Part shown: positions 4,731 to 25,509 of the stretch, piece after piece
Layout of the letters: each line of letters starts with the position of its first letter
Numbering within the stretch: position 1 is the first letter of the stretch
Assembly: GCF_003334815.1 (NCBI RefSeq)
Contig: NZ_QOWO01000007.1
Strand: one strand, 5' to 3'
DNA length: 64,000 bases
DNA from: Escherichia coli
GTDB taxonomy: Bacteria; Pseudomonadota; Gammaproteobacteria; Enterobacterales; Enterobacteriaceae
Notes under the pieces: model-generated
What the model was told of the DNA's origin: nothing
Databases searched by the model: none
Seen by the model: only the letters and a program-made list of their open reading frames with translations
Translations under genes and position numbers: made by a program

Positions 4731-7328
4731 ATGGGTAAAGCTCTTGTCATCGTTGAGTCCCCGGCAAAAGCCAAAACGATCAACAAGTATCTGGGTAGTG
4801 ACTACGTGGTGAAATCCAGCGTCGGTCACATCCGCGATTTGCCGACCAGTGGCTCAGCTGCCAAAAAGAGTGCCGACTCTACCTCCACCAAGACGGCTAA
4901 AAAGCCTAAAAAGGATGAACGTGGCGCTCTCGTCAACCGTATGGGGGTTGACCCGTGGCACAATTGGGAGGCGCACTATGAAGTGTTGCCTGGTAAAGAG
5001 AAGGTCGTCTCTGAACTGAAACAACTGGCTGAAAAAGCCGACCACATCTATCTCGCAACCGACCTTGACCGCGAAGGGGAAGCCATTGCATGGCACCTGC
5101 GGGAAGTGATTGGGGGTGATGATGCGCGCTATAGCCGAGTGGTGTTTAACGAAATTACTAAAAACGCGATCCGCCAGGCATTTAACAAACCGGGTGAGCT
5201 GAATATTGATCGTGTTAATGCCCAGCAGGCGCGTCGCTTTATGGACCGCGTGGTGGGGTATATGGTTTCGCCGCTGCTATGGAAAAAGATCGCTCGTGGT
5301 CTGTCTGCCGGTCGTGTGCAGTCGGTGGCGGTTCGCCTGGTGGTCGAGCGTGAGCGTGAAATTAAAGCGTTCGTGCCGGAAGAGTTCTGGGAAGTCGATG
5401 CCAGCACGACCACGCCATCTGGTGAAGCGTTGGCGTTACAGGTGACTCATCAGAACGACAAACCGTTCCGTCCGGTCAACAAAGAACAAACTCAGGCTGC
5501 GGTAAGTCTGCTGGAAAAAGCGCGCTACAGCGTGCTGGAACGTGAAGACAAACCGACAACCAGTAAACCTGGCGCTCCTTTTATTACCTCTACGCTGCAA
5601 CAAGCTGCCAGCACCCGTCTTGGATTTGGCGTGAAAAAAACCATGATGATGGCGCAGCGTTTGTATGAAGCAGGCTATATCACTTACATGCGTACCGACT
5701 CCACTAACCTGAGTCAGGACGCGGTAAATATGGTTCGCGGTTATATCAGCGATAATTTTGGTAAGAAATATCTGCCGGAAAGTCCGAATCAGTACGCCAG
5801 CAAAGAAAACTCACAGGAAGCGCACGAAGCGATTCGTCCTTCTGACGTCAATGTGATGGCGGAATCGCTGAAGGATATGGAAGCAGATGCGCAGAAACTG
5901 TACCAGTTAATCTGGCGTCAGTTCGTTGCCTGCCAGATGACCCCAGCGAAATATGACTCCACGACGCTGACCGTTGGTGCGGGCGATTTCCGCCTGAAAG
6001 CACGCGGTCGTATTTTGCGTTTTGATGGCTGGACAAAAGTGATGCCTGCGTTGCGTAAAGGCGATGAAGATCGCATCTTACCAGCAGTTAATAAAGGCGA
6101 TGCTCTGACGCTCGTTGAACTTACACCAGCCCAGCACTTTACCAAGCCGCCAGCCCGTTTCAGTGAAGCATCGCTGGTTAAAGAGCTGGAAAAACGCGGT
6201 ATCGGTCGTCCGTCTACCTATGCGTCGATCATTTCGACCATTCAGGATCGTGGCTACGTGCGAGTAGAAAATCGTCGTTTCTATGCGGAAAAAATGGGCG
6301 AAATCGTCACCGATCGCCTTGAAGAAAATTTCCGCGAGTTAATGAACTACGACTTTACCGCGCAGATGGAAAACAGCCTCGACCAGGTGGCAAATCACGA
6401 AGCAGAGTGGAAAGCTGTACTGGATCACTTCTTCTCGGATTTCACCCAGCAGTTAGATAAAGCTGAAAAAGATCCGGAAGAGGGTGGTATGCGCCCGAAC
6501 CAGATGGTTCTGACCAGCATTGACTGCCCGACTTGTGGTCGCAAAATGGGGATTCGCACAGCGAGCACCGGGGTATTCCTTGGCTGTTCTGGCTATGCGC
6601 TGCCGCCGAAAGAGCGTTGCAAAACCACCATTAACCTGGTGCCGGAAAACGAAGTGCTGAACGTGCTGGAAGGCGAAGATGCTGAAACCAACGCGCTGCG
6701 CGCAAAACGTCGTTGCCCGAAATGCGGCACGGCGATGGACAGCTATCTCATCGATCCGAAACGTAAGTTGCATGTCTGTGGTAATAACCCAACCTGCGAC
6801 GGTTACGAGATCGAAGAGGGCGAATTCCGCATTAAAGGTTATGACGGCCCGATCGTTGAGTGTGAAAAATGTGGCTCTGAAATGCACCTGAAAATGGGGC
6901 GTTTCGGTAAATACATGGCCTGCACCAACGAAGAGTGTAAAAACACACGTAAGATTTTACGTAACGGCGAAGTGGCACCCCCGAAAGAAGATCCGGTGCC
7001 ATTACCTGAGCTGCCGTGCGAAAAATCAGATGCTTATTTCGTGCTGCGTGACGGTGCTGCCGGTGTGTTCCTGGCTGCCAACACTTTCCCGAAATCGCGT
7101 GAAACGCGTGCGCCACTGGTGGAAGAGCTTTATCGCTTCCGCGACCGTCTGCCGGAAAAACTGCGTTATCTGGCCGATGCGCCACAGCAGGATCCGGAAG
7201 GTAATAAGACCATGGTTCGCTTTAGCCGTAAAACCAAACAGCAATATGTCTCTTCGGAAAAAGACGGAAAGGCGACTGGCTGGTCAGCATTTTATGTTGA
7301 TGGCAAATGGGTTGAAGGAAAAAAATAA
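4731..7328 (+). CDS. topA: DNA topoisomerase I
   Basis: 865 aa from ATG 4731 (SD aaggtg). It has a Toprim N-terminus ([15 protein letters not shown]) and C-terminal zinc ribbons ([24 protein letters not shown]). The track start at 4689 is an upstream extension without support. Confidence 0.96.
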
Positions 7329-7357
7329 CCTTTAATTCTGTCAGGTTTTTATAAACA

Positions 7358-7383
7358 AAGGGTCGCGAAAGCGGCCCTTTTTT
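7358..7383 (+). terminator. topA intrinsic terminator
   Basis: aagggtcgc-gaaa-gcggccctt (one G-U pair) running into a T6 tract. Confidence 0.8.
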
Positions 7384-7513
7384 ATTGCATATTATTTTTT
7401 CTTCACACCTATACACTAAGGCTATAAATGATATAGTGGTTATAGTTAGCACCTTTTTTATTATTAAATCGTATTAGTCACCCGCCAGGTGTGACGAAAA
7501 AACGATGTTCTGA

Positions 7514-8512
<999 letters not shown>

Positions 8513-8528
8513 TTTCTTGCGTTATTTT

Positions 8529-8556
8529 CGGCACCTTTTATGTAGCGAAGGTGCCG
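8529..8556 (+). terminator. Possible cysB terminator hairpin
   Basis: cggcacc ... ggtgccg 7-bp stem with a 14-nt loop. There is only a weak T-rich tail further downstream. Confidence 0.4.
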
Positions 8557-8830
8557 GAATATATTCTCTTTTGTTACTTATTTCTATACCGTGCACAATA
8601 TTTTTATCCCTCATATTTATAGGGTAAATTACCTGTAAAGTAGTGTCTAATTACCCGCCTCGCAAACTCCAGTTTTCAAATATCTATTTCAGGTCAAAAG
8701 ATTGAATTATTCACTGGAGACGATTCGTAAATTCGCTGGATTTTTGACTAAAGTTTCTTTAGGATTTGTCTCATCGTATGATTAATTACACCAATCGTTC
8801 AACGTCTTGCTGATAAGTGATGGCGATTAT

Positions 8831-8971
8831 ATGAGGTTAGCAATGCCTTCTGGAAATCAGGAACCCCGCCGCGATCCTGAATTAAAACGTAAAGCCTGGC
8901 TGGCGGTTTTTCTTGGTTCTGCACTTTTCTGGGTGGTTGTCGCACTGCTGATTTGGAAAGTGTGGGGATAA
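8831..8971 (+). CDS. ymiA: Small membrane protein YmiA (46 aa)
   Basis: ATG 8831 to TAA 8969-8971, giving MRLAMPSGNQEPRRDPELKRKAWLAVFLGSALFWVVVALLIWKVWG with one clear hydrophobic helix. It is below the 60-aa cut-off of the ORF track. Confidence 0.75.
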   Translation: MRLAMPSGNQEPRRDPELKRKAWLAVFLGSALFWVVVALLIWKVWG

Positions 8972-8973
8972 CT

Positions 8974-9141
8974 ATGGTCGGTCAGGAGCAACTGGAGTCG
9001 TCACCATTATGCCAGCATAGTGACAATGAAACAGAAACGAAACGGGAATGTTCCGTCGTTATTCCAGACGACTGGCAACTAACATCGCAGCAGCAAGCCT
9101 TTATAGAACTGTTTGCTGAAGATGATCAGCCGAAACAATAA
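8974..9141 (+). CDS. yciX: Small acidic protein YciX (55 aa)
   Basis: ATG 8974 lies 2 nt after the ymiA stop, giving MVGQEQLESSPLCQHSDNETETKRECSVVIPDDWQL... The track ORF starts earlier at a TTG (8953). Confidence 0.7.
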   Translation: MVGQEQLESSPLCQHSDNETETKRECSVVIPDDWQLTSQQQAFIELFAEDDQPKQ

Positions 9142-9254
9142 TTATCATCATTCTTATTACCCATTTTTAATGAATTAAAGGGCTTTTAATACACCGCAGC
9201 AATAACAGCTTGAGTTATCTCAACACAAAATAATAACCGTTAAGGGTGTAGCCT

Positions 9255-9350
9255 ATGATCAACACAAATATGAAATATTGGTCCTGGATGGGCGCGTTTT
9301 CTCTGTCGATGCTCTTCTGGGCCGAACTCCTCTGGATCATTACTCACTGA
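9255..9350 (+). CDS. Candidate 31-aa hydrophobic small protein (YmiC-like)
   Basis: ATG 9255 to TGA 9348-9350, giving MINTNMKYWSWMGAFSLSMLFWAELLWIITH with one TM-like segment. A GC-rich hairpin follows at 9356-9374. I believe a small protein (ymiC) is annotated here in K-12 but cannot verify this. Confidence 0.45.
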   Translation: MINTNMKYWSWMGAFSLSMLFWAELLWIITH

Positions 9351-9355
9351 TCCTT

Positions 9356-9374
9356 GACCCCGCTGCGGCGGGGT
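9356..9374 (+). terminator. Hairpin after the small-ORF cluster
   Basis: gaccccgc-tgc-gcggggtt, followed by gtcatttg, which is a weak U-tract. Confidence 0.4.
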
Positions 9375-9513
9375 TGTCATTTGCTTTGCCACAAGGTTTC
9401 TCCTCTTTTATCAATTTGGGTTGTTATCAAATCGTTACGCGATGTTTGTGTTATCTTTAATATTCACCCTGAAGAGAATCAGGGCTTCGCAACCCTGTCA
9501 TTAAGGAGGAGCT

Positions 9514-12189
9514 ATGTCGTCAACCCTACGAGAAGCCAGTAAGGACACGTTGCAGGCCAAAGATAAAACTTACCACTACTACAGCCTGCCGCTTGCTGCT
9601 AAATCACTGGGCGATATCACCCGTCTACCCAAGTCACTCAAAGTTTTGCTCGAAAACCTGCTGCGCTGGCAGGATGGTAACTCGGTTACCGAAGAGGATA
9701 TCCACGCGCTGGCAGGATGGCTGAAAAATGCCCATGCTGACCGTGAAATTGCCTACCGCCCGGCAAGGGTGCTGATGCAGGACTTTACCGGCGTACCTGC
9801 CGTTGTTGATCTGGCGGCAATGCGCGAAGCGGTTAAACGCCTCGGCGGCGATACTGCAAAGGTTAACCCGCTCTCACCGGTCGACCTGGTCATTGACCAC
9901 TCGGTGACCGTCGATCGTTTTGGTGATGATGAGGCATTTGAAGAAAACGTACGCCTGGAAATGGAGCGCAACCACGAACGTTATGTGTTCCTGAAATGGG
10001 GAAAGCAAGCGTTCAGTCGGTTTAGCGTCGTGCCGCCAGGCACAGGCATTTGCCATCAGGTTAACCTCGAATATCTCGGCAAAGCAGTGTGGAGTGAATT
10101 GCAGGACGGTGAATGGATTGCTTATCCGGATACACTCGTTGGTACTGACTCGCACACCACCATGATCAACGGCCTTGGCGTGCTGGGGTGGGGCGTTGGT
10201 GGGATCGAAGCAGAAGCCGCAATGTTAGGCCAGCCGGTTTCCATGCTTATCCCGGATGTAGTGGGCTTCAAACTTACCGGAAAATTACGTGAAGGTATTA
10301 CCGCCACAGACCTGGTTCTCACTGTTACCCAAATGCTGCGCAAACATGGCGTGGTGGGGAAATTCGTCGAATTTTATGGTGATGGTCTGGATTCACTACC
10401 GTTGGCGGATCGCGCCACCATTGCCAATATGTCGCCAGAATATGGTGCCACCTGTGGCTTCTTCCCAATCGATGCTGTAACCCTCGATTACATGCGTTTA
10501 AGCGGGCGCAGCGAAGATCAGGTCGAGTTGGTCGAAAAATATGCCAAAGCGCAGGGCATGTGGCGTAACCCGGGCGATGAACCAATTTTTACCAGTACGT
10601 TAGAACTGGATATGAATGACGTTGAAGCGAGCCTGGCAGGGCCTAAACGCCCACAGGATCGCGTTGCACTGCCCGATGTACCAAAAGCATTTGCCGCCAG
10701 TAACGAACTGGAAGTGAATGCCACGCATAAAGATCGCCAGCCGGTCGATTATGTTATGAACGGACATCAGTATCAGTTACCTGATGGCGCTGTGGTCATT
10801 GCTGCGATAACCTCGTGCACCAACACCTCTAACCCAAGTGTGCTGATGGCCGCAGGCTTGCTGGCGAAAAAAGCCGTAACTCTGGGCCTCAAGCGGCAAC
10901 CATGGGTCAAAGCGTCGCTGGCACCGGGTTCGAAAGTCGTTTCTGATTATCTGGCAAAAGCGAAACTGACACCGTATCTCGACGAACTGGGGTTTAACCT
11001 TGTGGGATACGGTTGTACCACCTGTATTGGTAACTCTGGGCCGCTGCCCGATCCTATCGAAACGGCAATCAAAAAAGGCGATTTAACCGTCGGTGCGGTG
11101 CTGTCCGGCAACCGTAACTTTGAAGGCCGTATCCATCCGCTGGTTAAAACTAACTGGCTGGCCTCGCCGCCGCTGGTGGTTGCCTATGCGCTGGCGGGAA
11201 ATATGAATATCAACCTGGCTTCTGAGCCTATCGGCCATGATCGCAAAGGCGATCCGGTTTATCTGAAAGATATCTGGCCATCGGCACAAGAAATTGCCCG
11301 TGCGGTAGAACAAGTCTCCACAGAAATGTTCCGCAAAGAGTACGCAGAAGTTTTTGAAGGCACAGCAGAGTGGAAGGGAATTAACGTCACACGATCCGAT
11401 ACCTACGGTTGGCAGGAGGACTCAACCTATATTCGCTTATCGCCTTTCTTTGATGAAATGCAGGCAACACCAGCACCAGTGGAAGATATTCACGGTGCGC
11501 GGATCCTCGCAATGCTGGGGGATTCAGTCACCACTGACCATATCTCTCCGGCGGGCAGTATTAAGCCCGACAGCCCAGCGGGTCGATATCTACAAGGTCG
11601 GGGTGTTGAGCGAAAAGACTTTAACTCCTACGGTTCGCGGCGTGGTAACCATGAAGTGATGATGCGCGGCACCTTCGCCAATATTCGCATCCGTAATGAA
11701 ATGGTGCCTGGCGTTGAAGGGGGGATGACGCGGCATTTACCTGACAGCGACGTAGTCTCTATTTATGATGCTGCGATGCGCTATAAGCAGGAGCAAACGC
11801 CGCTGGCGGTGATTGCCGGGAAAGAGTATGGATCAGGCTCCAGTCGTGACTGGGCGGCAAAAGGTCCGCGTCTGCTTGGTATTCGTGTGGTGATTGCCGA
11901 ATCGTTTGAACGAATTCACCGTTCGAATTTAATTGGCATGGGCATCCTGCCGCTGGAATTTCCGCAAGGCGTAACGCGTAAAACGTTAGGGCTAACCGGG
12001 GAAGAGAAGATTGATATTGGCGATCTGCAAAACCTACAACCCGGCGCGACGGTTCCGGTGACGCTTACGCGCGCGGATGGTAGCCAGGAAGTCGTACCCT
12101 GCCGTTGTCGTATCGACACCGCGACGGAGTTGACCTACTACCAGAACGACGGCATTTTGCATTATGTCATTCGTAATATGTTGAAGTAA
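9514..12189 (+). CDS. acnA: Aconitate hydratase A
   Basis: 891-aa ORF with SD aaggagg. It belongs to the aconitase/IRP family, with Fe-S ligand regions [10 protein letters not shown] and [10 protein letters not shown]. Confidence 0.97.
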
Positions 12190-12195
12190 CAACTA

Positions 12196-12230
12196 TTTGC
12201 TTGCCGGTTATTTTGCTTCCGGCAAGCAAA
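12196..12230. terminator. Perfect 12-bp hairpin between convergent acnA and ribA
   Basis: tttgcttgccgg-(11 nt)-ccggcaagcaaa read directly. Confidence 0.6.
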
Positions 12231-12252
12231 TGAATTACACAATGCAAGAGGG

Positions 12253-12843
12253 TTATTTGTTCAGCAAATGGCCCATTTTCTCGGCTTTGGTATCGAGATA
12301 ATGTTCGTTATTGGGGTTACGACCTACAATCAATGGTACGCGTTCAACAATATTAATCCCTGCTTCGGTCAGAATTTCGACTTTTTTCGGGTTATTGGTT
12401 AACAAGCGGACTTCATTGACGCCAAGGAGTTTGAACATATCAGCGCAAAGAGTGAAGTCGCGCTCATCAGCGGCGAAGCCTAACTGGTGGTTAGCCTCTA
12501 CGGTATCGTAACCTTGATCCTGCAGTGCGTAAGCGCGGATTTTATTCAGCAGACCAATGTTACGACCTTCCTGACGGTGATACAGCAAAATACCACGGCC
12601 TTCCTCGGCAATTTGCGTCAATGCCGCTTCGAGCTGGAAGCCACAATCGCAGCGCAAGCTGAACAGGGCGTCACCGGTCAGACATTCGGAATGGACGCGC
12701 GCAAGTACCGGGGTATGCCCGGAAATATCGCCATAGACTAGCGCGACATGATCGTGTCCGGTTGCCAGTTCTTCAAATCCCACCATCAGGAAATCGCCCC
12801 ATGGGGTTGGCAGTTTGGCTTCTGCCACACGTTTAAGCTGCAT
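12253..12843 (-). CDS. ribA: GTP cyclohydrolase II
   Basis: 196 aa from ATG 12843 (SD ggagaa), starting [18 protein letters not shown]..., with zinc motif [18 protein letters not shown]. The track start at 12906 adds 21 unsupported residues. Confidence 0.95.
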
Positions 12844-13012
12844 GAAATTCTCCAGATAATGCTGGTTCTGTATTGGCTTATTTTGCCATAACGAGAAGGG
12901 GTTCACCTAATCACGACGCGTCGATCGTTCACGGAATGGCACAAATCTGTCAATTTTTCCTGGAACTGGCGTTTTCAGTTATGATTGTGGGACTTATCAA
13001 AAAGGAGAGGCC

Positions 13013-13777
13013 ATGCGTTCGATTGCCAGACGTACCGCAGTGGGAGCTGCACTATTGCTTGTCATGCCAGTAGCCGTATGGATTTCTGGCTGGCGTTGGC
13101 AACCTGGAGAACAAAGTTGGCTACTAAAAGCGGCTTTTTGGGTTACTGAAACTGTCACCCAGCCCTGGGGCGTCATTACACATTTGATTTTATTCGGCTG
13201 GTTTCTCTGGTGTCTGCGTTTTCGCATTAAGGCTGCCTTTGTATTATTTGCCATTCTGGCGGCCGCAATCCTTGTGGGACAAGGCGTTAAATCCTGGATC
13301 AAAGACAAAGTCCAGGAACCACGACCTTTTGTTATCTGGCTGGAAAAAACACATCATATTCCGGTTGATGAGTTCTACACTTTAAAGCGAGCAGAACGCG
13401 GAAATCTAGTGAAAGAACAGTTGGCTGAAGAGAAAAATATCCCACAATATTTGCGTTCACACTGGCAGAAAGAGACGGGGTTTGCCTTTCCTTCCGGTCA
13501 CACGATGTTTGCTGCCAGTTGGGCACTGCTGGCCGTTGGTTTGCTGTGGCCGCGTCGGCGAACGTTAACCATTGCTATCTTGCTGGTCTGGGCAACGGGA
13601 GTCATGGGAAGCCGCCTGCTGCTCGGGATGCATTGGCCACGCGATCTGGTAGTAGCTACGTTGATTTCGTGGGCGCTGGTGGCGGTGGCAACGTGGCTTG
13701 CGCAACGAATTTGTGGGCCATTAACACCACCTGCGGAAGAAAATCGCGAAATAGCGCAACGAGAACAAGAAAGTTAA
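13013..13777 (+). CDS. pgpB: Phosphatidylglycerophosphatase B (PAP2 family)
   Basis: 254-aa polytopic ORF with PAP2 motifs KDKVQEPRP, FPSGHT and SRLLLGMHWPRD. Confidence 0.95.
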   Translation: MRSIARRTAVGAALLLVMPVAVWISGWRWQPGEQSWLLKAAFWVTETVTQPWGVITHLILFGWFLWCLRFRIKAAFVLFAILAAAILVGQGVKSWIKDKVQEPRPFVIWLEKTHHIPVDEFYTLKRAERGNLVKEQLAEEKNIPQYLRSHWQKETGFAFPSGHTMFAASWALLAVGLLWPRRRTLTIAILLVWATGVMGSRLLLGMHWPRDLVVATLISWALVAVATWLAQRICGPLTPPAEENREIAQREQES

Positions 13778-13925
13778 CGCTGGTTGATTTTCCGAATTTA
13801 GCCCTTAAATCATCAACAATGCGTGTGGATGCCATTTCGCAGACGGCGCGAAAATGGTACTTTAAAGGGCTATTGCGGTAAGTTGACCATAATTTATTCG
13901 CTCTAACCACATAACGGGAAGTAAT

Positions 13926-14234
13926 GTGAAATATTTACTCATTTTCTTACTGGTGTTAGCGATCTTCGTGATTTCGGTCACGTTGGGTGCGCAGAACGAT
14001 CAACAGGTGACGTTTAATTATCTGTTAGCGCAAGGGGAGTACCGTATTTCCACATTGCTGGCGGTATTGTTTGCTGCGGGGTTTGCTATCGGTTGGTTGA
14101 TTTGTGGCCTGTTCTGGCTGCGAGTTCGTGTTTCCCTGGCGCGCGCTGAACGTAAAATAAAGCGACTGGAAAACCAGCTTTCACCCGCGACTGACGTGGC
14201 TGTAGTGCCGCACTCGTCAGCGGCGAAGGAATAA
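13926..14234 (+). CDS. lapA: LPS assembly protein LapA (YciS)
   Basis: 102-aa ORF with a GTG start and two TM helices. It lies immediately upstream of lapB. Confidence 0.9.
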   Translation: MKYLLIFLLVLAIFVISVTLGAQNDQQVTFNYLLAQGEYRISTLLAVLFAAGFAIGWLICGLFWLRVRVSLARAERKIKRLENQLSPATDVAVVPHSSAAKE

Positions 14235-14240
14235 CTTTCT

Positions 14241-15410
14241 ATGCTGGAGTTGTTGTTTCTGCTTTTGCCTGTAGCCGCTGCCTATGGCTGGTATATGGGC
14301 CGCAGAAGTGCGCAACAAAACAAGCAAGATGAAGCCAACCGCTTGTCGCGTGATTACGTAGCGGGGGTTAACTTCCTGCTTAGTAATCAACAGGATAAAG
14401 CGGTAGACCTGTTTCTCGATATGCTTAAAGAGGATACAGGCACCGTTGAAGCCCACCTTACGCTCGGAAACCTGTTCCGTTCGCGTGGCGAAGTTGATCG
14501 CGCTATTCGCATCCATCAGACCCTAATGGAAAGCGCCTCGCTGACCTATGAACAGCGTCTGTTGGCGATTCAACAACTGGGGCGTGATTACATGGCCGCC
14601 GGGTTATATGACCGCGCGGAAGACATGTTCAATCAGCTGACCGATGAAACTGACTTCCGCATTGGCGCGCTGCAACAGTTGCTACAAATCTACCAGGCTA
14701 CCAGTGAGTGGCAGAAAGCAATTGATGTTGCCGAACGCCTGGTGAAGCTGGGTAAAGATAAACAGCGCGTCGAAATTGCCCATTTCTACTGTGAGTTAGC
14801 CCTGCAGCATATGGCCAGCGACGATCTCGATCGTGCCATGACCTTGCTAAAAAAAGGGGCGGCGGCAGATAAAAACAGCGCCCGCGTATCCATAATGATG
14901 GGACGCGTGTTTATGGCGAAAGGAGAATACGCCAAAGCCGTCGAAAGTCTGCAACGCGTGATATCCCAGGACAGAGAACTGGTCAGCGAAACGCTGGAAA
15001 TGTTGCAAACCTGCTATCAGCAGTTGGGTAAAACTGCCGAATGGGCAGAATTCCTGCAGCGTGCGGTGGAAGAGAACACCGGTGCCGATGCTGAATTGAT
15101 GCTTGCTGATATCATCGAAGCGCGCGACGGTAGTGAGGCCGCACAGGTCTATATTACGCGCCAGCTTCAGCGTCATCCGACCATGCGTGTGTTCCATAAG
15201 TTAATGGATTACCACTTAAATGAAGCGGAAGAAGGGCGTGCCAAAGAGAGCCTGATGGTGCTGCGTGACATGGTTGGCGAGAAGGTACGTAGTAAGCCTC
15301 GTTATCGTTGCCAGAAATGTGGTTTTACCGCATACACCCTCTACTGGCATTGTCCGTCTTGTCGGGCCTGGTCAACCATTAAACCGATTCGCGGTCTTGA
15401 TGGCCTGTAA
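14241..15410 (+). CDS. lapB: LPS assembly / LpxC-degradation adaptor LapB (YciM)
   Basis: 389-aa ORF with an N-terminal TM helix, TPR repeats and a C-terminal rubredoxin-like CQKCGF...CPSC. Confidence 0.95.
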   Translation: MLELLFLLLPVAAAYGWYMGRRSAQQNKQDEANRLSRDYVAGVNFLLSNQQDKAVDLFLDMLKEDTGTVEAHLTLGNLFRSRGEVDRAIRIHQTLMESASLTYEQRLLAIQQLGRDYMAAGLYDRAEDMFNQLTDETDFRIGALQQLLQIYQATSEWQKAIDVAERLVKLGKDKQRVEIAHFYCELALQHMASDDLDRAMTLLKKGAAADKNSARVSIMMGRVFMAKGEYAKAVESLQRVISQDRELVSETLEMLQTCYQQLGKTAEWAEFLQRAVEENTGADAELMLADIIEARDGSEAAQVYITRQLQRHPTMRVFHKLMDYHLNEAEEGRAKESLMVLRDMVGEKVRSKPRYRCQKCGFTAYTLYWHCPSCRAWSTIKPIRGLDGL

Positions 15411-23933: not shown

Positions 23934-24722
23934 TTATTTCAGTTCGAGTTCGTTCATTGCAGCAATGCTGAAACCGCCGTCAACGTGGACCACTTCACCG
24001 GAGATACCGGCAGAGAGATCGGAGCACAGGAATGCCGCAGAGTTACCCACATCTTCAATAGTAACGGTACGGCGAATCGGGGTAACGGCTTCGCAATGAG
24101 CCAGCATTTTGCGGAAGTCTTTGATACCGGAGGCCGCCAGAGTACGGATCGGACCAGCAGAGATGGCGTTAACACGCACACCTTCCGGACCCATCGCGTT
24201 CGCCATATAGCGCACGTTCGCTTCCAGAGACGCTTTTGCCAGACCCATAACGTTGTAGTTCGGGATAGCGCGCTCAGCGCCAAGGTAGGAAAGGGTCAGC
24301 AGGGCAGAACCCGGATTCAGCATGGAGCGGCAAGCTTTTGCCATTGCAACGAAGCTGTAGGAGCTGATGTCGTGGGCAATTTTGAAGCCTTCACGGGTAA
24401 CGGCGTTAACATAGTCACCATCCAGCTGATCGCCAGGTGCAAAACCAATAGAGTGTACGAAACCGTCAAATTTCGGCCAAACTTTCCCCAGTTCAGCGAA
24501 CATGGTGTCGATGCTGGCATCTTCTGCAACATCGCACTGCAGAACGATGTCAGAACCCAATTGAGCGGCAAATTCTTCTACGCGGCCTTTCAGTTTGTCG
24601 TTCTGGTAGGTGAATGCCAGTTCAGCTCCTTCGCGGTGCATCGCCTGAGCGATACCGTAGGCGATGGATAGTTTGCTGGCAACACCGGTTACCAGAATGC
24701 GCTTACCGGAAAGAAAACCCAT
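23934..24722 (-). CDS. fabI: Enoyl-ACP reductase (NADH) FabI
   Basis: 262-aa ORF starting [28 protein letters not shown]..., SDR-type, with catalytic Tyr/Lys region [13 protein letters not shown]. Confidence 0.97.
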
Positions 24723-24885
24723 AGCTTTAATCCTTATTGTTGATGCTTGTTGTGCCTGAAAATCAGGCGATTCGTCGTTTTAGTAAACAGTACGAACAGA
24801 TAAACGGTTATTATAATCAACCTGGCTGTGAGTAGCTATAGTTGCCAGGTCCGACCGGAGCAGGCTGCGGCAGGGGGGCGCTTTT

Positions 24886-24924
24886 CCCCTCACCCTAACC
24901 CTCTCCCCAGAGGGGCGAGGGGAC
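24886..24924 (+). repeat. Box C-like GC-rich palindromic repeat
   Basis: cccctcaccctaaccctctccccagaggggcgaggggacc, the intergenic repeat family I know as Box C in E. coli. The family name is from memory. Confidence 0.6.
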
Positions 24925-25001
24925 CGTATTGTGCAAATATTGTTACCCCAGCAACAAACAGGCTCATACAGCCCCTAACCCTTTCATGGCGATGGCTGGG
25001 A

Positions 25002-25040
25002 CGGTTCAGACCTTGCCGAATATTCTCCAGCACCGTCTCC
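25002..25040 (-). repeat. Remnant copy of the ycjD 3' coding region (35/39 identical to 25108-25146)
   Basis: Direct comparison by eye. The minus-strand reading gives ETVLENIRQGLNR versus ETVLENILQELNR in ycjD. Confidence 0.8.
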
Positions 25041-25075
25041 ATGTTTTCACCACAACAGCTATTCGGCTCGGTCTG

Positions 25076-25105
25076 CCCCCTCGCTCTTTCAGGGAGAGGG
25101 TGACC
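25076..25105 (-). repeat. Second Box C-like unit, inverted relative to 24886-24924; supplies the last codons and stop of ycjD
   Basis: The reverse complement ggtcaccctctccctgaaagagcgaggggg resembles aaccctctccccagaggggcgagggg. Confidence 0.55.
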
Positions 25106-25442
25106 GGCGGTTCAGTTCCTGCAGAATATTCTCCAGCACCGTCTCCTCATTACAATCAATCTCGTTATTCCAGAAACGCAGCACGGTCCAGCCCTGCGAC
25201 TCAAGCCAGCTAGTGCGCCTGGAATCATAGGCAACTGCTAAATCATGCTGCCCACCATCCAGCTCAACGACTACACGCGCCGAGCAGCAAGCAAAATCGA
25301 GAATGTAGCTCCCCACTGGATGTTGACGGCGAAATTTGAAATCACTAAAACGTCGGCTGCGAAGATATCGCCAGAGCTTTCGTTCCTGCAAAGTGAGATT
25401 GCGTCTTAAATCACGCGCATTTGATTTAATTTTATCTATCAC
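25089..25442 (-). CDS. ycjD: DUF559 (Vsr / restriction-endonuclease-like fold) protein YcjD
   Basis: 117-aa ORF with a GTG start. It carries DUF559-type motifs ...FRRQHPVGSYILDFAC...VVELDGGQHD...GWTVLRFWNNE. Confidence 0.85.
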   Translation of the reverse strand: MIDKIKSNARDLRRNLTLQERKLWRYLRSRRFSDFKFRRQHPVGSYILDFACCSARVVVELDGGQHDLAVAYDSRRTSWLESQGWTVLRFWNNEIDCNEETVLENILQELNRRSPSP

Positions 25443-25482
25443 CTCATTCTGACAAGATTTAATCTTTTGTCAGAATGAGGTG
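25440..25482 (-). terminator. Perfect 16-bp hairpin between sapF and ycjD (probable sap operon terminator); includes the ycjD GTG start
   Basis: cacctcattctgacaa-(11 nt)-ttgtcagaatgaggtg read directly. Confidence 0.55.
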
Positions 25483-25509
25483 AATAATCTGGAAGGAGGA
25501 TTCAGAAAA

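Follow-up and report, generated by a model that had tools for sequence, protein, structure and literature searches.

YcjD-type DUF559 nuclease genes, including ycjD of Escherichia coli, are physically coupled to BoxC/PIT/TMECO triplex-motif (TM) repeats in many phyla. We analysed a 64,000-nucleotide stretch of E. coli DNA carrying ycjD (the window) together with 80 YcjD-type loci from many phyla, which were picked by protein motifs only. A C/G hairpin is located at the domain or 3' end in 75 of the 80 loci (94%), and 71 (89%) have an upstream C/G hairpin 20-220 nt from the gene. Of 381 control ORFs in the same loci, 5.5% carry such a hairpin 3' and 3.9% carry one 5'. Around the 3' end there are 6.0 hairpins per kb, versus 0.26 per kb elsewhere, and the flanking copies are inverted ('>' gene '<') in 36/80 loci. 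The downstream TM typically overlaps the stop codon and encodes a PSPxPSP tail; P-x-P tails also occur in 83/125 members of an independent sample of cluster representatives. The original prediction described ycjD as an orphan, which does not hold, since BoxC/TM repeats accompany YcjD-type genes constantly across phyla. Earlier publications already cover the gene and its fold, as well as the finding that strains carry either ycjD or the eefRABCD island. The link to the repeats appears to be new, as no connection of DUF559 to BoxC, PIT, or TMECO was found in the freely accessible papers searched.

The block sequences of the repeats differ by lineage, and the gene-adjacent TMs belong to a repeat family dispersed in the same genome. 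An exact 12-mer is common to far-flank hairpins and gene-adjacent TMs of the same locus in 40% of cases, versus 8% with a random other locus. Nearly all enterobacterial YcjD homologues, which are 60-67% identical, have the C-terminal tail PSPRPSP, which is a type-B TMECO in reverse complement. This tail is encoded by CCCTCACCC-CGG-CCCTCTCCC-TGA, i.e., the repeat read as codons. Enterobacterial copies have no upstream TM, and in E. asburiae and K. quasipneumoniae the order is gene, TM B, TM A, the same layout as in the window. The Neisseria gonorrhoeae gene for the solved structure 3HRL (NGO0050) is likewise flanked by TM-bearing repeats.

BoxC was described at the ycjD locus itself in 1992 (Bergler 1992, as cited in PMC4666352), and its later names were PIT and, after that, TMECO (Hoyne 2000, as cited in PMC4666352; Holder 2015). 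These elements form intrastrand triplexes in vitro, and TM loci are hot spots of variation and rearrangement (PMC4666352); the ycjD locus is variable in the same way. No function, means of spread, or mobilising agent is known for TMECO (PMC4666352). Published TMECO counts are 29 in E. coli 55989, 1 in IHE3034, none in Salmonella, and 143 in E. asburiae, with 143 or more copies in Enterobacter (Holder 2015, PMC4666352). No Salmonella protein is present among the organism-named entries of the best 120 YcjD homologues listed, many of which come without an organism name.

The ycjD CDS is located at 25089..25442 on the minus strand and encodes a YcjD-type DUF559 endonuclease of 117 aa with a Vsr/EDxHD fold, with a GTG start and the stop codon within these coordinates. 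Coordinates, length, start, and translation all agree with the original prediction, as does the placement between fabI and the sap operon (RefSeq annotates ycjD between fabI and sapF). ycjD is flanked by fabI, yciW, and rnb and, at its other end, by sapFDCBA; as predicted, methylase, ATPase, and antitoxin genes are absent among these neighbours. ycjD is a real gene for a full-length DUF559 protein. Its Pfam match to DUF559 (PF04480; E 1.4e-49, 167 bits vs a cut-off of 20.6) covers profile positions 2-109/109 (108/109 positions), and the NCBIfam YcjD equivalog PRK09767 matches residues 1-117/117 with 267.8 bits vs a cut-off of 218. The sole other Pfam match is to the related MTES_1575 restriction-endonuclease family.

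In the AF2 model (pLDDT 91.7), the 117 residues of YcjD are taken up by the nuclease domain and a pair of short helices at the N-terminus. The closest solved structure by sequence is PDB 3HRL (E 1.1e-27), which also ranks first in Foldseek (E 2e-7), followed by the I-Bth0305I domain 3R3P (E 1.4e-5, Foldseek TM 0.69) and 1VSR (E 0.13, Foldseek TM 0.57). Residues E20, D49, D62, H66, and D73 are unchanged in an alignment of 20 diverse homologues. An hhalign pairing with Vsr, at a low probability of 29% (E 5.8e-4), matches E20/E25, D49/D51, D62/H64 (His to Asp), H66/H69, and D73/D97, with the position of H66 ambiguous inside the Vsr histidine run. Loss of the catalytic residues had been set beforehand as the result that would speak against this assignment; instead, the acidic and histidine positions are all present, and YcjD looks catalytically intact on the basis of these alignments. 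The Pfam, NCBIfam, fold, and catalytic-position evidence agrees with the expected stand-alone, Vsr/restriction-endonuclease-like DUF559 protein.

The gene was also predicted to be bracketed by repeats. This is correct on the 3' side, where there are three repeats, but not on the other, as K-12 has no upstream TM. The repeat nearest the gene is a truncated type-B motif (TM B') over the ycjD stop codon at 25076..25103 on the plus strand, which reads CCCCCTCGCTC-TTTCA-GGGAGAGGG and pairs with the complete TM as inverted repeat I1. In K-12 it contains only the first two blocks of the consensus, with mismatches, and it is complete in alleles that keep a further 12 nt. The third block is gone by a 12-nt deletion (indel ACCCTCACCCCA in the allele alignment), and because this deletion took the block, the K-12 protein has RRSPSP at its end in place of the SPSPQPSP of other alleles. 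A stable hairpin at the K-12 stop codon was ruled out by a DNA fold of -6.8 kcal/mol (z = -0.4), and K-12 TM B' is therefore degraded.

Next to TM B', at 24962..25042 on the minus strand, a second DUF559 copy has left a remnant of its 3' end (ETVLENIRQGLN...), after which comes a decayed TM. The remnant forms direct repeat D1, in which 39 nt (25002-25040 vs 25108-25146; 90% identical) copy ycjD's own 3' end, and tblastn matches it to YcjD residues 98-114 with 76% identity. The remnant has a 13-nt indel polymorphism in the allele alignment, and it is missing from a divergent Escherichia allele (L101), in which the K-12 post-remnant sequence directly follows TM B. The remnant is a relic of allele replacement or partial duplication. 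The third repeat, at 24887..24922 on the minus strand, is a complete type-A motif, CCCTCGCCCC-TCT-GGGGAGAGGG-TTA-GGGTGAGGGG, and matches the BoxC/PIT/TMECO consensus CCCTCNCCC-N3-6-GGGNGAGGG-N3-GGGNGAGGG. A pattern search for complete TMECO gave 1 match vs 0.01 expected by chance, and this is the sole C/G hairpin of its kind across the 64-kb window. It corresponds to TMECO no. 9, whose Table 1 coordinates (1,351,204-1,351,239; PMC4666352) map to this position.

On the other side of the gene, a perfect 17-bp hairpin lies between sapF and ycjD (25439..25483, unstranded; inverted repeat I3 with arms 25439-25455 and 25467-25483). Its RNA fold of -30.1 kcal/mol (z = -6.8; 0/200 shuffles equally stable) matches the strong hairpin of the original prediction. 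A homologous hairpin is found at the eef-type O157:H7 locus, and since eef-type strains have it too, the hairpin belongs to the sapF flank. It contains a promoter-like palindromic match. Its reading as a classical intrinsic terminator was ruled out, because a T-run is absent after it on both strands. The ycjD start codon (25442-25440) sits in one arm of the hairpin. The predicted GTG start is present, but because other E. coli alleles read GTG-ATG-GAT and K-12 reads GTG-ATA-GAT in the allele alignment, it is the remainder after loss of the likely original ATG. Expression of K-12 ycjD is doubtful, because the ATG has been lost and a -30 kcal/mol hairpin encloses the start codon. With its missing upstream TM, ATG-to-ATA change, start within the sapF hairpin, and 12-nt TM loss, K-12 ycjD is a stranded, partly eroded member of its type.

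Genome comparison places the strain-variable segment at 24846..25438 (unstranded), comprising TM A, the remnant, TM B', and ycjD. The full query of the locus is present in 3346/5426 E. coli genomes, and the remainder match only query positions 1-146 (window 24700-24845). In these ~38% of genomes, a ~7.9-kb eefRABCD island replaces the ycjD segment, as seen at the O157:H7 locus. This alternative has been published (PMC12817139), and the same paper reports the 12-nt-longer ycjD allele for ST69 and ST182. Each ycjD-carrying E. coli genome has one ycjD place. The large MG1655 deletion of strain ME5100 also covers ycjD.

The median number of TM places per E. coli genome is 16 with ycjD versus 3 without (Mann-Whitney p = 1.7e-9). 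However, eef-type genomes such as O157:H7 have about 10-17 TMs without ycjD, with about 12 in O157-type genomes, and the ycjD-positive A_5, with the 12-nt-longer allele, has about as many TMs as O157. Because O157:H7-type genomes keep TMs and A_5 resembles O157, the ycjD/TM correlation in E. coli is largely a phylogroup (B2) effect; a clean correlation was rejected, being significant overall yet inseparable from phylogroup in the present data. Five TM doublets are present in K-12, and in three of them the 27-nt spacers are homologous and conserved; the doublets are gene-less and REPIN-like. The 27-nt spacer was considered as a leftover DUF559 gene end, but in an ungapped comparison with nine enterobacterial genes it scored no better than shuffles (p = 0.28-1.0). 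A tblastn search of the surroundings of the K-12 TM doublets and of the eef locus in O157:H7 detected no DUF559 remnant other than the window's own.

The chromosomal site of the YcjD-type gene differs among three enterobacterial lineages, and its neighbours at all three sites are housekeeping genes. Alleles that share a chromosomal site are far older than their flanks. At the hemW-yggN site, the gene is 64-76% identical vs 85-93% for the flanks, and in Escherichia the ycjD alleles are 87% identical vs 94.5-98% for the flanks. Remnants or truncated copies are found at the K-12 locus and at a second YcjD-type locus (L088). The protein is under purifying selection, with dN/dS of 0.07-0.18 between genera or lineages (~0.1 between genera and 0.18 vs the divergent Escherichia allele); within E. 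coli the values are 0.4-0.6, from 6-9 substitutions only. Among the three options of the original prediction, a selfish-element remnant is the best fit, but purifying selection indicates that YcjD is not merely a remnant. Carriage by plasmids or phages was rejected as a transfer vehicle, with matches in 34/72,556 plasmid records, many of them chromids or mislabelled chromosomes, and in 3 phage records. Because the gene is single-copy, long resident, and constrained in enterobacteria, a host or domesticated role would explain it there as well as a selfish one.

By analogy with RAYT/REPIN or homing, we give about an even chance that ycjD is a repeat-associated nuclease. It would belong to a widespread unit with two parts, the DUF559 gene and the hairpin repeats, with YcjD as the protein component. 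YcjD would recognise its cognate TM DNA as a duplex, extruded hairpin, or triplex and nick or cut it, after which break-induced repair and gene conversion would copy or replace the TMs and the gene itself. The process would resemble the maintenance of REPIN doublets by a single-copy RAYT or the spread of a free-standing homing endonuclease. Its action on TMs would also account for the instability of TM loci as rearrangement hot spots. The copy-making step is conjecture, because a Vsr-fold hydrolase cannot do strand transfer. Our fuller proposal is more tentative, and we would sooner doubt it than rely on it: YcjD-type DUF559 nucleases may be the missing protein partner of BoxC/PIT/TMECO, forming a second nuclease-repeat partnership that is independent of RAYT and spans many phyla. 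In it, a Vsr/EDxHD-fold nickase acting on structured C/G repeats would drive the spread or turnover of the repeats and of its own gene through break-induced copying, and would in this way cause the instability of TM loci.

YcjD could instead be a housekeeping Vsr-like mismatch nickase that acts in very-short-patch-type repair on behalf of an unlinked cytosine methyltransferase, with the flanking repeats incidental, which we think distinctly unlikely. The fold and the five conserved Vsr catalytic positions fit such a role, as do purifying selection and the long, single-copy residence in enterobacterial lineages. The same model has been proposed for Caulobacter VsrA, which carries a DUF559 domain and triggers the SOS response once the unlinked methyltransferase gene for ScmA has been removed. 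However, YcjD scores 13.9 bits vs a cut-off of 97.85 on the Vsr family model (TIGR00632 / PF03852), with residues 70-94 alone matching, and its predicted structure is nearer to the homing endonuclease than to Vsr. The Cys/His cluster that follows the HGCFWH strand of Vsr and binds zinc (PMC3239194) has no counterpart in YcjD; the aligned stretch, DGGQHD, is without cysteine, and hhalign places a 4-residue gap opposite Vsr WHHH. No C5-cytosine methyltransferase is linked to ycjD, which adjoins fabI and sapF, and the true dcm-vsr pair is elsewhere in the K-12 genome. Very-short-patch-type mismatch nicking is less likely given this low score, the absent zinc-site cysteines, the resident dcm-vsr, and the 38% of E. 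coli genomes without ycjD. A Vsr-like role would also leave two things unexplained: alleles that are much older than their flanks, and the hairpin frequency, which is 94% for 3' ends and 89% for 5' ends (controls 4-6%).

Another explanation, which we consider unlikely, is a different role for the protein, for example in restriction or defence or in processing unusual DNA structures to protect replication. The TMs would then be passive, as insulators or terminators for a potentially toxic gene or as co-inherited sequence, and solo TMs would spread separately. DUF559-type domains do serve as nuclease modules in defence proteins, UG26 reverse transcriptases sometimes adjoin COG2852 proteins, and YcjD has faint matches to the C-termini of ProA and Hhe. 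The placement of TMs on both sides of the gene is insulator-like, the gene is constrained and vertically stable, and O157:H7 keeps TMs without ycjD. However, the top PADLOC match, to the Hhe C-terminal end, is not significant (E 0.039), a PHROGs search of YcjD returned nothing significant for a system, and the neighbours at the three enterobacterial sites are housekeeping genes rather than a defence island. A terminator needs neither a third block nor sequence likeness across phyla, the gene-adjacent TMs match the dispersed family of the same genome, and Maher's group, as cited in PMC4666352, saw neither an in vivo effect nor terminator or promoter activity for PIT elements. Very unlikely, in our view, is that K-12 ycjD is a non-functional, unexpressed relic of an old insertion, kept as harmless. 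The ATA in place of ATG, a remaining GTG within the -30 kcal/mol hairpin and without good Shine-Dalgarno spacing, the partial TM deletion, and the within-E. coli dN/dS from few substitutions would all suit such a relic, and the gene is dispensable, being absent from eef-type strains and within the ME5100 deletion. Nevertheless, thousands of genomes have an uninterrupted reading frame, all catalytic positions are retained, dN/dS is low against the divergent Escherichia allele and between genera, and translation may still start at the in-frame GTG.

A partnership between YcjD-type nucleases and TMs would matter beyond this locus. DUF559 is a large nuclease family of no known function (25,064 cluster representatives in our search at E ≤ 1e-3), and the TM link merges this puzzle and that of the repeats into one testable hypothesis, namely that the nuclease cuts the repeat at its flank. 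If true, it would explain many spurious 'PLPxGEG' hypothetical proteins and add a non-HUH case to the few bacterial partnerships of a domesticated nuclease with a repeat.

A known partnership of this kind is that of REP-associated tyrosine transposases with REP doublets (RAYT/REPIN; Bertels & Rainey 2011, PMC3116915; Bertels et al. 2017, PMC5581495). By analogy only, the nuclease gene of either system is single-copy and mostly vertically inherited, and it has short palindromic repeats of its own on its flanks. In both, tens to hundreds of further copies of these repeats are scattered through the genome, many of them paired as inverted doublets around a short spacer, and lineages without the gene have fewer. 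The enzymes differ, as YcjD is a Vsr/EDxHD hydrolase and RAYT is an HUH Y1 (IS200/IS605-like) transposase with a covalent intermediate. The repeats here are C/G triplex motifs, not REPs, and the 3' repeat overlaps the CDS.

The best functionally characterised structural match to YcjD is the EDxHD homing endonuclease I-Bth0305I (PDB 3R3P; PMC3239194), which has the same catalytic residue set, with the I-Bth0305I/Vsr residue correspondence taken from PMC3239194. Like a free-standing selfish nuclease, YcjD occupies specific sites, its alleles predate their flanks, and copies that were replaced have left remnants. However, YcjD lacks the N-terminal NUMOD/HTH DNA-binding region of I-Bth0305I, and its gene is chromosomal and intergenic rather than in an intron, intein, or phage. 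The gene is also flanked by repeats and splits no conserved host gene. Vsr itself (E. coli b1960; PDB 1VSR, 1CW0) is in the same superfamily branch, with VSR, DUF559, and DUF2726 grouped together by Steczkiewicz 2012, and its E, D, H/D, H, and D positions align with those of YcjD. The two differ in that YcjD falls far under the family threshold, has neither the zinc site nor an adjacent dcm-type methyltransferase, and has weaker structural similarity to Vsr.

The closest solved relative, NGO0050 (PDB 3HRL), is a structural-genomics entry without published function. Caulobacter VsrA (CCNA_02930), compared here by its DUF559 domain alone, is the sole DUF559 protein for which we found a phenotype in vivo, namely DNA damage when the methylase is mutated. 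In the studies of BoxC/PIT/TMECO (PMC4666352), the motif is described as always intergenic and unlinked to neighbour function or mobile elements. Here, in contrast, the type-B copy is the 3' end of the DUF559 CDS in most relatives.

The ycjD gene occupies 25089..25442 on the minus strand and encodes 117 aa from a GTG start, and no partner methylase, ATPase or antitoxin is present among the neighbouring genes rnb, yciW, fabI and sapFDCBA, both as the original prediction had it. The gene order, rnb-yciW-fabI-ycjD-sapFDCBA, is that of K-12-like E. coli. In profile searches the protein aligns along the whole of Pfam DUF559 (E 1.4e-49), and with the E. coli YcjD equivalog of NCBIfam it scores 267.8 bits, above the cut-off of 218. 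The literature reports no function for ycjD, and the gene is dispensable, since the large MG1655 deletion in strain ME5100 takes it out. According to a 2026 paper (PMC12817139), the fabI-sapF interval of E. coli is occupied by ycjD in some strains and by the eefRABCD efflux operon in the others. We reproduced this either/or state, with the ycjD segment present in 3346 of 5426 complete E. coli genomes and replaced in O157:H7 by a ~7.9-kb island of TetR, RND, OMF and MFS genes. The gap spans 24846-25438 in the window versus 6256-14273 in the O157:H7 locus L003, where the RND gene of the island is frameshifted. Its fabI-side breakpoint coincides exactly with a complete triplex motif (TM), the C/G hairpin repeat also called BoxC, PIT or TMECO.

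The "strong hairpin" noted beside the gene was borne out: repeat search located an inverted repeat at 25439-25483 with perfect 17-bp arms, whose folding energy as RNA is -30.1 kcal/mol (z = -6.8). The GTG start of ycjD sits inside it. Because the hairpin is common to strains with different inserts, it is part of the sapF flank. The start region reads GTG-ATA-GAT in K-12 versus GTG-ATG-GAT in other alleles. Within the hairpin, a palindromic sigma-70-like match (25446-25476, both strands) comprises CTGACA, 16 nt and CAGAAT, with an upstream TG. Its predicted minus-strand start is the ATG of the non-K-12 alleles, where K-12 has ATA, and we speculate that this promoter-like match would give a leaderless AUG transcript in those alleles.

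YcjD has appeared in lists of PD-(D/E)XK, Vsr-related proteins for two decades, and Steczkiewicz et al. placed VSR, DUF559 and DUF2726 in one group, with structures 1CW0, 3HRL and 3R3P. Among solved structures, the nearest in sequence is 3HRL of Neisseria gonorrhoeae (E 1.1e-27). The AlphaFold model of YcjD, built with 20 homologues as input, is confident (pLDDT 91.7). Foldseek ranked 3HRL (N. gonorrhoeae NGO0050) first for this model (E 2e-7, TM-score 0.72), next the catalytic domain of homing endonuclease I-Bth0305I (3R3P; E 1.4e-5, TM-score 0.69), and then E. coli Vsr (1VSR; E 0.13, TM-score 0.57). When 20 diverse homologues are aligned, residues E20, D49, E60, D62, H66 and D73 are invariant; in a profile alignment with E. 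coli Vsr, E20, D49, D62, H66 and D73 fall opposite Vsr E25, D51, H64, H69 and D97. The catalytic residues are therefore kept, and the proposed nuclease reading, put to this test, was not refuted. In the same profile alignment the zinc-site cysteines of Vsr have no counterpart, and YcjD scores far under the Vsr family cut-off. Judged by sequence and model, YcjD looks like an active nuclease, and by sequence it is no Vsr orthologue.

Four elements succeed one another on the gene strand at the 3' end of ycjD. The gene ends in ...NRRSPSP*, with a truncated C/G hairpin (TM B) over the stop codon at 25076-25103. This is followed at 24962-25042 (-) by a remnant, recovered by repeat search and tblastn, in which a 39-nt, 90% copy of the last ycjD codons precedes a decayed hairpin. 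The fourth element, at 24887-24922 (-), is a complete triplex motif of the form CCCTCGCCCC-TCT-GGGGAGAGGG-TTA-GGGTGAGGGG, listed by Holder et al. 2015 (PMC4666352) as TMECO no. 9 in their Table 1; it is the sole hairpin of TMECO type in the 64-kb window. Alignment of alleles revealed a 13-nt indel in the remnant, and the third block of TM B, 12 nt (ACCCTCACCCCA), is absent from K-12 and one other lineage. In most type-A TMECOs of the same Table 1, the C1/G2 stem holds a conserved G.A mismatch (CCCTCGCCCC vs GGGGAGAGGG), which is intriguing given that the adjacent nuclease is of a family with a mismatch nickase among its relatives. ORFs across the TMs, at 24828-25103 (+) and 24890-25042 (-), encode PLPRGARG- or GRGLG-type peptides, and databases contain 134-160-aa read-through YcjD variants (P0004-P0016). 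TMs are likely a general source of spurious 'hypothetical proteins'.

Holder et al. (PMC4666352) reported in vitro triplex formation by these motifs and their presence at variable loci, and described them as 'always intergenic', with no tie to gene function or mobile elements. The tails of YcjD homologues contradict this. Of the relatives at 60-67% identity (Enterobacter, Klebsiella, Kluyvera, Lelliottia, Leclercia, Phytobacter and others), nearly all have the C-terminus ...PSPRPSP*; the underlying DNA, CCCTCACCC-CGG-CCCTCTCCC-TGA, is a type-B TMECO in reverse complement. The loci bear this out. In E. asburiae, a type-A TM lies 10 nt beyond the TM B at the gene end; in K. quasipneumoniae, three 62-nt tandem units separate the two. 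These units (L009, 4365-4560) each carry a CCCTCTCCC...GAGAGGG hairpin. At the hemW-yggN site, two DUF559 lineages (L017 and L021 vs L005 and L013) have opposite TM order: one ends in type B followed by type A, and the other in type A followed by type B, its ...PSP* tail using the TAA of the loop as stop codon. Types A and B always occur in pairs. An upstream TM is absent from enterobacterial copies altogether. We conclude that BoxC/TMECO repeats belong to the YcjD gene unit; in the literature searched, subscription-only journals excepted, nothing linked DUF559 to BoxC, PIT or TMECO.

The arrangement extends across phyla. A protein-motif scan, with one genome per species, gave 80 loci at ~46-99% amino-acid identity from Proteobacteria, Cyanobacteria/Melainabacteria, Planctomycetes, Nitrospirota, Dehalococcoidia, Elusimicrobiota and Dadabacteria. 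Hairpins, defined as an 8-nt C-rich pyrimidine arm, a 3-9-nt loop and a complementary arm with at most one mismatch, occurred from -30 to +200 nt of the domain end in 75/80 loci and upstream in 71/80 (-450 to +20 nt from the match start, with a peak 20-220 nt upstream of the gene); 68 loci had both. Density was 6.0 per kb near the 3' end versus 0.26 elsewhere in the loci, and control ORFs (n=381, >=150 aa) had hairpins at 5.5% of 3' ends and 3.9% of 5' ends. Far flanks (>1 kb away) held 0.135 hairpins per kb versus 0.03 after shuffling, and 40% of these had an exact 12-mer in common with gene-adjacent hairpins of the same locus versus 8% for a random other locus. In the commonest layout (36/80 loci), an upstream C1-loop-G2-G3 is matched by an inverted downstream C3-C2-loop-G1 over the stop codon; inverted repeats therefore bracket the gene, and an additional motif often lies farther out. 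The block sequence varies by lineage: CCCTCTCCC in many, CCTTCCCCC in Neisseria oralis and Methylophilaceae, CCCTCCCC in Elusimicrobiota and Lysobacter, and CCCCC...GGGGG-TYA-GGGGG in Picosynechococcus. Among independently sampled cluster representatives (50% identity), 83/125 had a P-x-P tail after the domain, and in 57 of these 83 the tail ran on into a GEG/GRG stretch. The 3HRL gene itself is flanked by two ~110-nt direct repeats with one TM in each, at about 190-310 and 950-1070 of the N. gonorrhoeae locus L105; the motif there is CCCCTCTCCC-TGT-GGGAAAGAG-TTA-GAGAGAGGG.

Enterobacterial copies occupy three sites: sapF-fabI in Escherichia, cysP-yfeX in Klebsiella and Kluyvera, and hemW-yggN in Enterobacter and Leclercia. 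The YcjD-type protein is constrained, with dN/dS of 0.07-0.18 in comparisons across genera or deep lineages. At hemW-yggN, gene identity is 64-76% and flank identity 85-93%; between K-12 and a divergent Escherichia allele (L101) the values are 87% and 94.5-98%. Since the gene is far more diverged than its flanks at a single site, with some gene pairs near saturation at synonymous sites, the comparison points to old alleles swapped into the same site. L101 has the order gene, TM B, 46-nt spacer, TM A and no remnant, and the sequence right after its TM B is that following the remnant in K-12; the K-12 remnant fits the allele-swap picture. In an Elusimicrobiota locus, a full DUF559 copy is followed by a truncated second copy. 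There (L088, 5660-6660, a MAG), the upstream region of the complete gene (5983-6315) is repeated after it, and the truncated copy, of the 5' half of the gene, lies within ORF 6342-6659. The gene is nearly absent from plasmids and phages.

Using a chimeric ycjD + TM query against the 5426 genomes, we counted TM places in an evenly spaced sample. Genomes with ycjD (n=37) had 11-28 (median 16) versus 1-17 (median 3) in those without (n=23), a contrast confounded by phylogeny (Mann-Whitney p 1.7e-9). It agrees with the TMECO counts of Holder et al. (PMC4666352): 29 in strain 55989, 1 in the B2 strain IHE3034, 0 in Salmonella and 143 in E. asburiae. O157:H7 retains about 12 TMs without ycjD.

We regard the association of YcjD-type DUF559 genes with BoxC-like triplex motifs as well established. 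That the nuclease acts on TMs, and that this explains both how they became dispersed and why TM loci are unstable, we put at about an even chance. Three main rivals bear on this second reading. YcjD may be a repair nickase of the Vsr kind, the role proposed for Caulobacter VsrA; its pairing with Vsr at five conserved positions favours this, and its lack of the zinc-site cysteines speaks against it. It may instead be a nuclease with an unrelated role, the repeats being passive; the persistence of TMs in O157:H7 without ycjD favours this. K-12 ycjD specifically may be an unexpressed relic; its ATA codon favours this, and the constraint on the family speaks against it.

Action of the nuclease on TMs is suggested by the anatomy of the loci, kinship to a homing endonuclease in structure, the signals of turnover and an analogy to RAYT/REPIN systems. 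K-12 has five TM doublets without the gene, which resemble REPINs. In three of them the 27-nt spacers are homologous and the outer flanks conserved (MG1655 L093, 624.55-624.71 kb; L094, 3045.96-3046.12 kb; L095, 3239.57-3239.73 kb). These three consist of type B, the 27-nt spacer and an inverted type A. Because spacers and outer flanks are shared, they represent a composite repeat of ~100 nt, similar to a REPIN.
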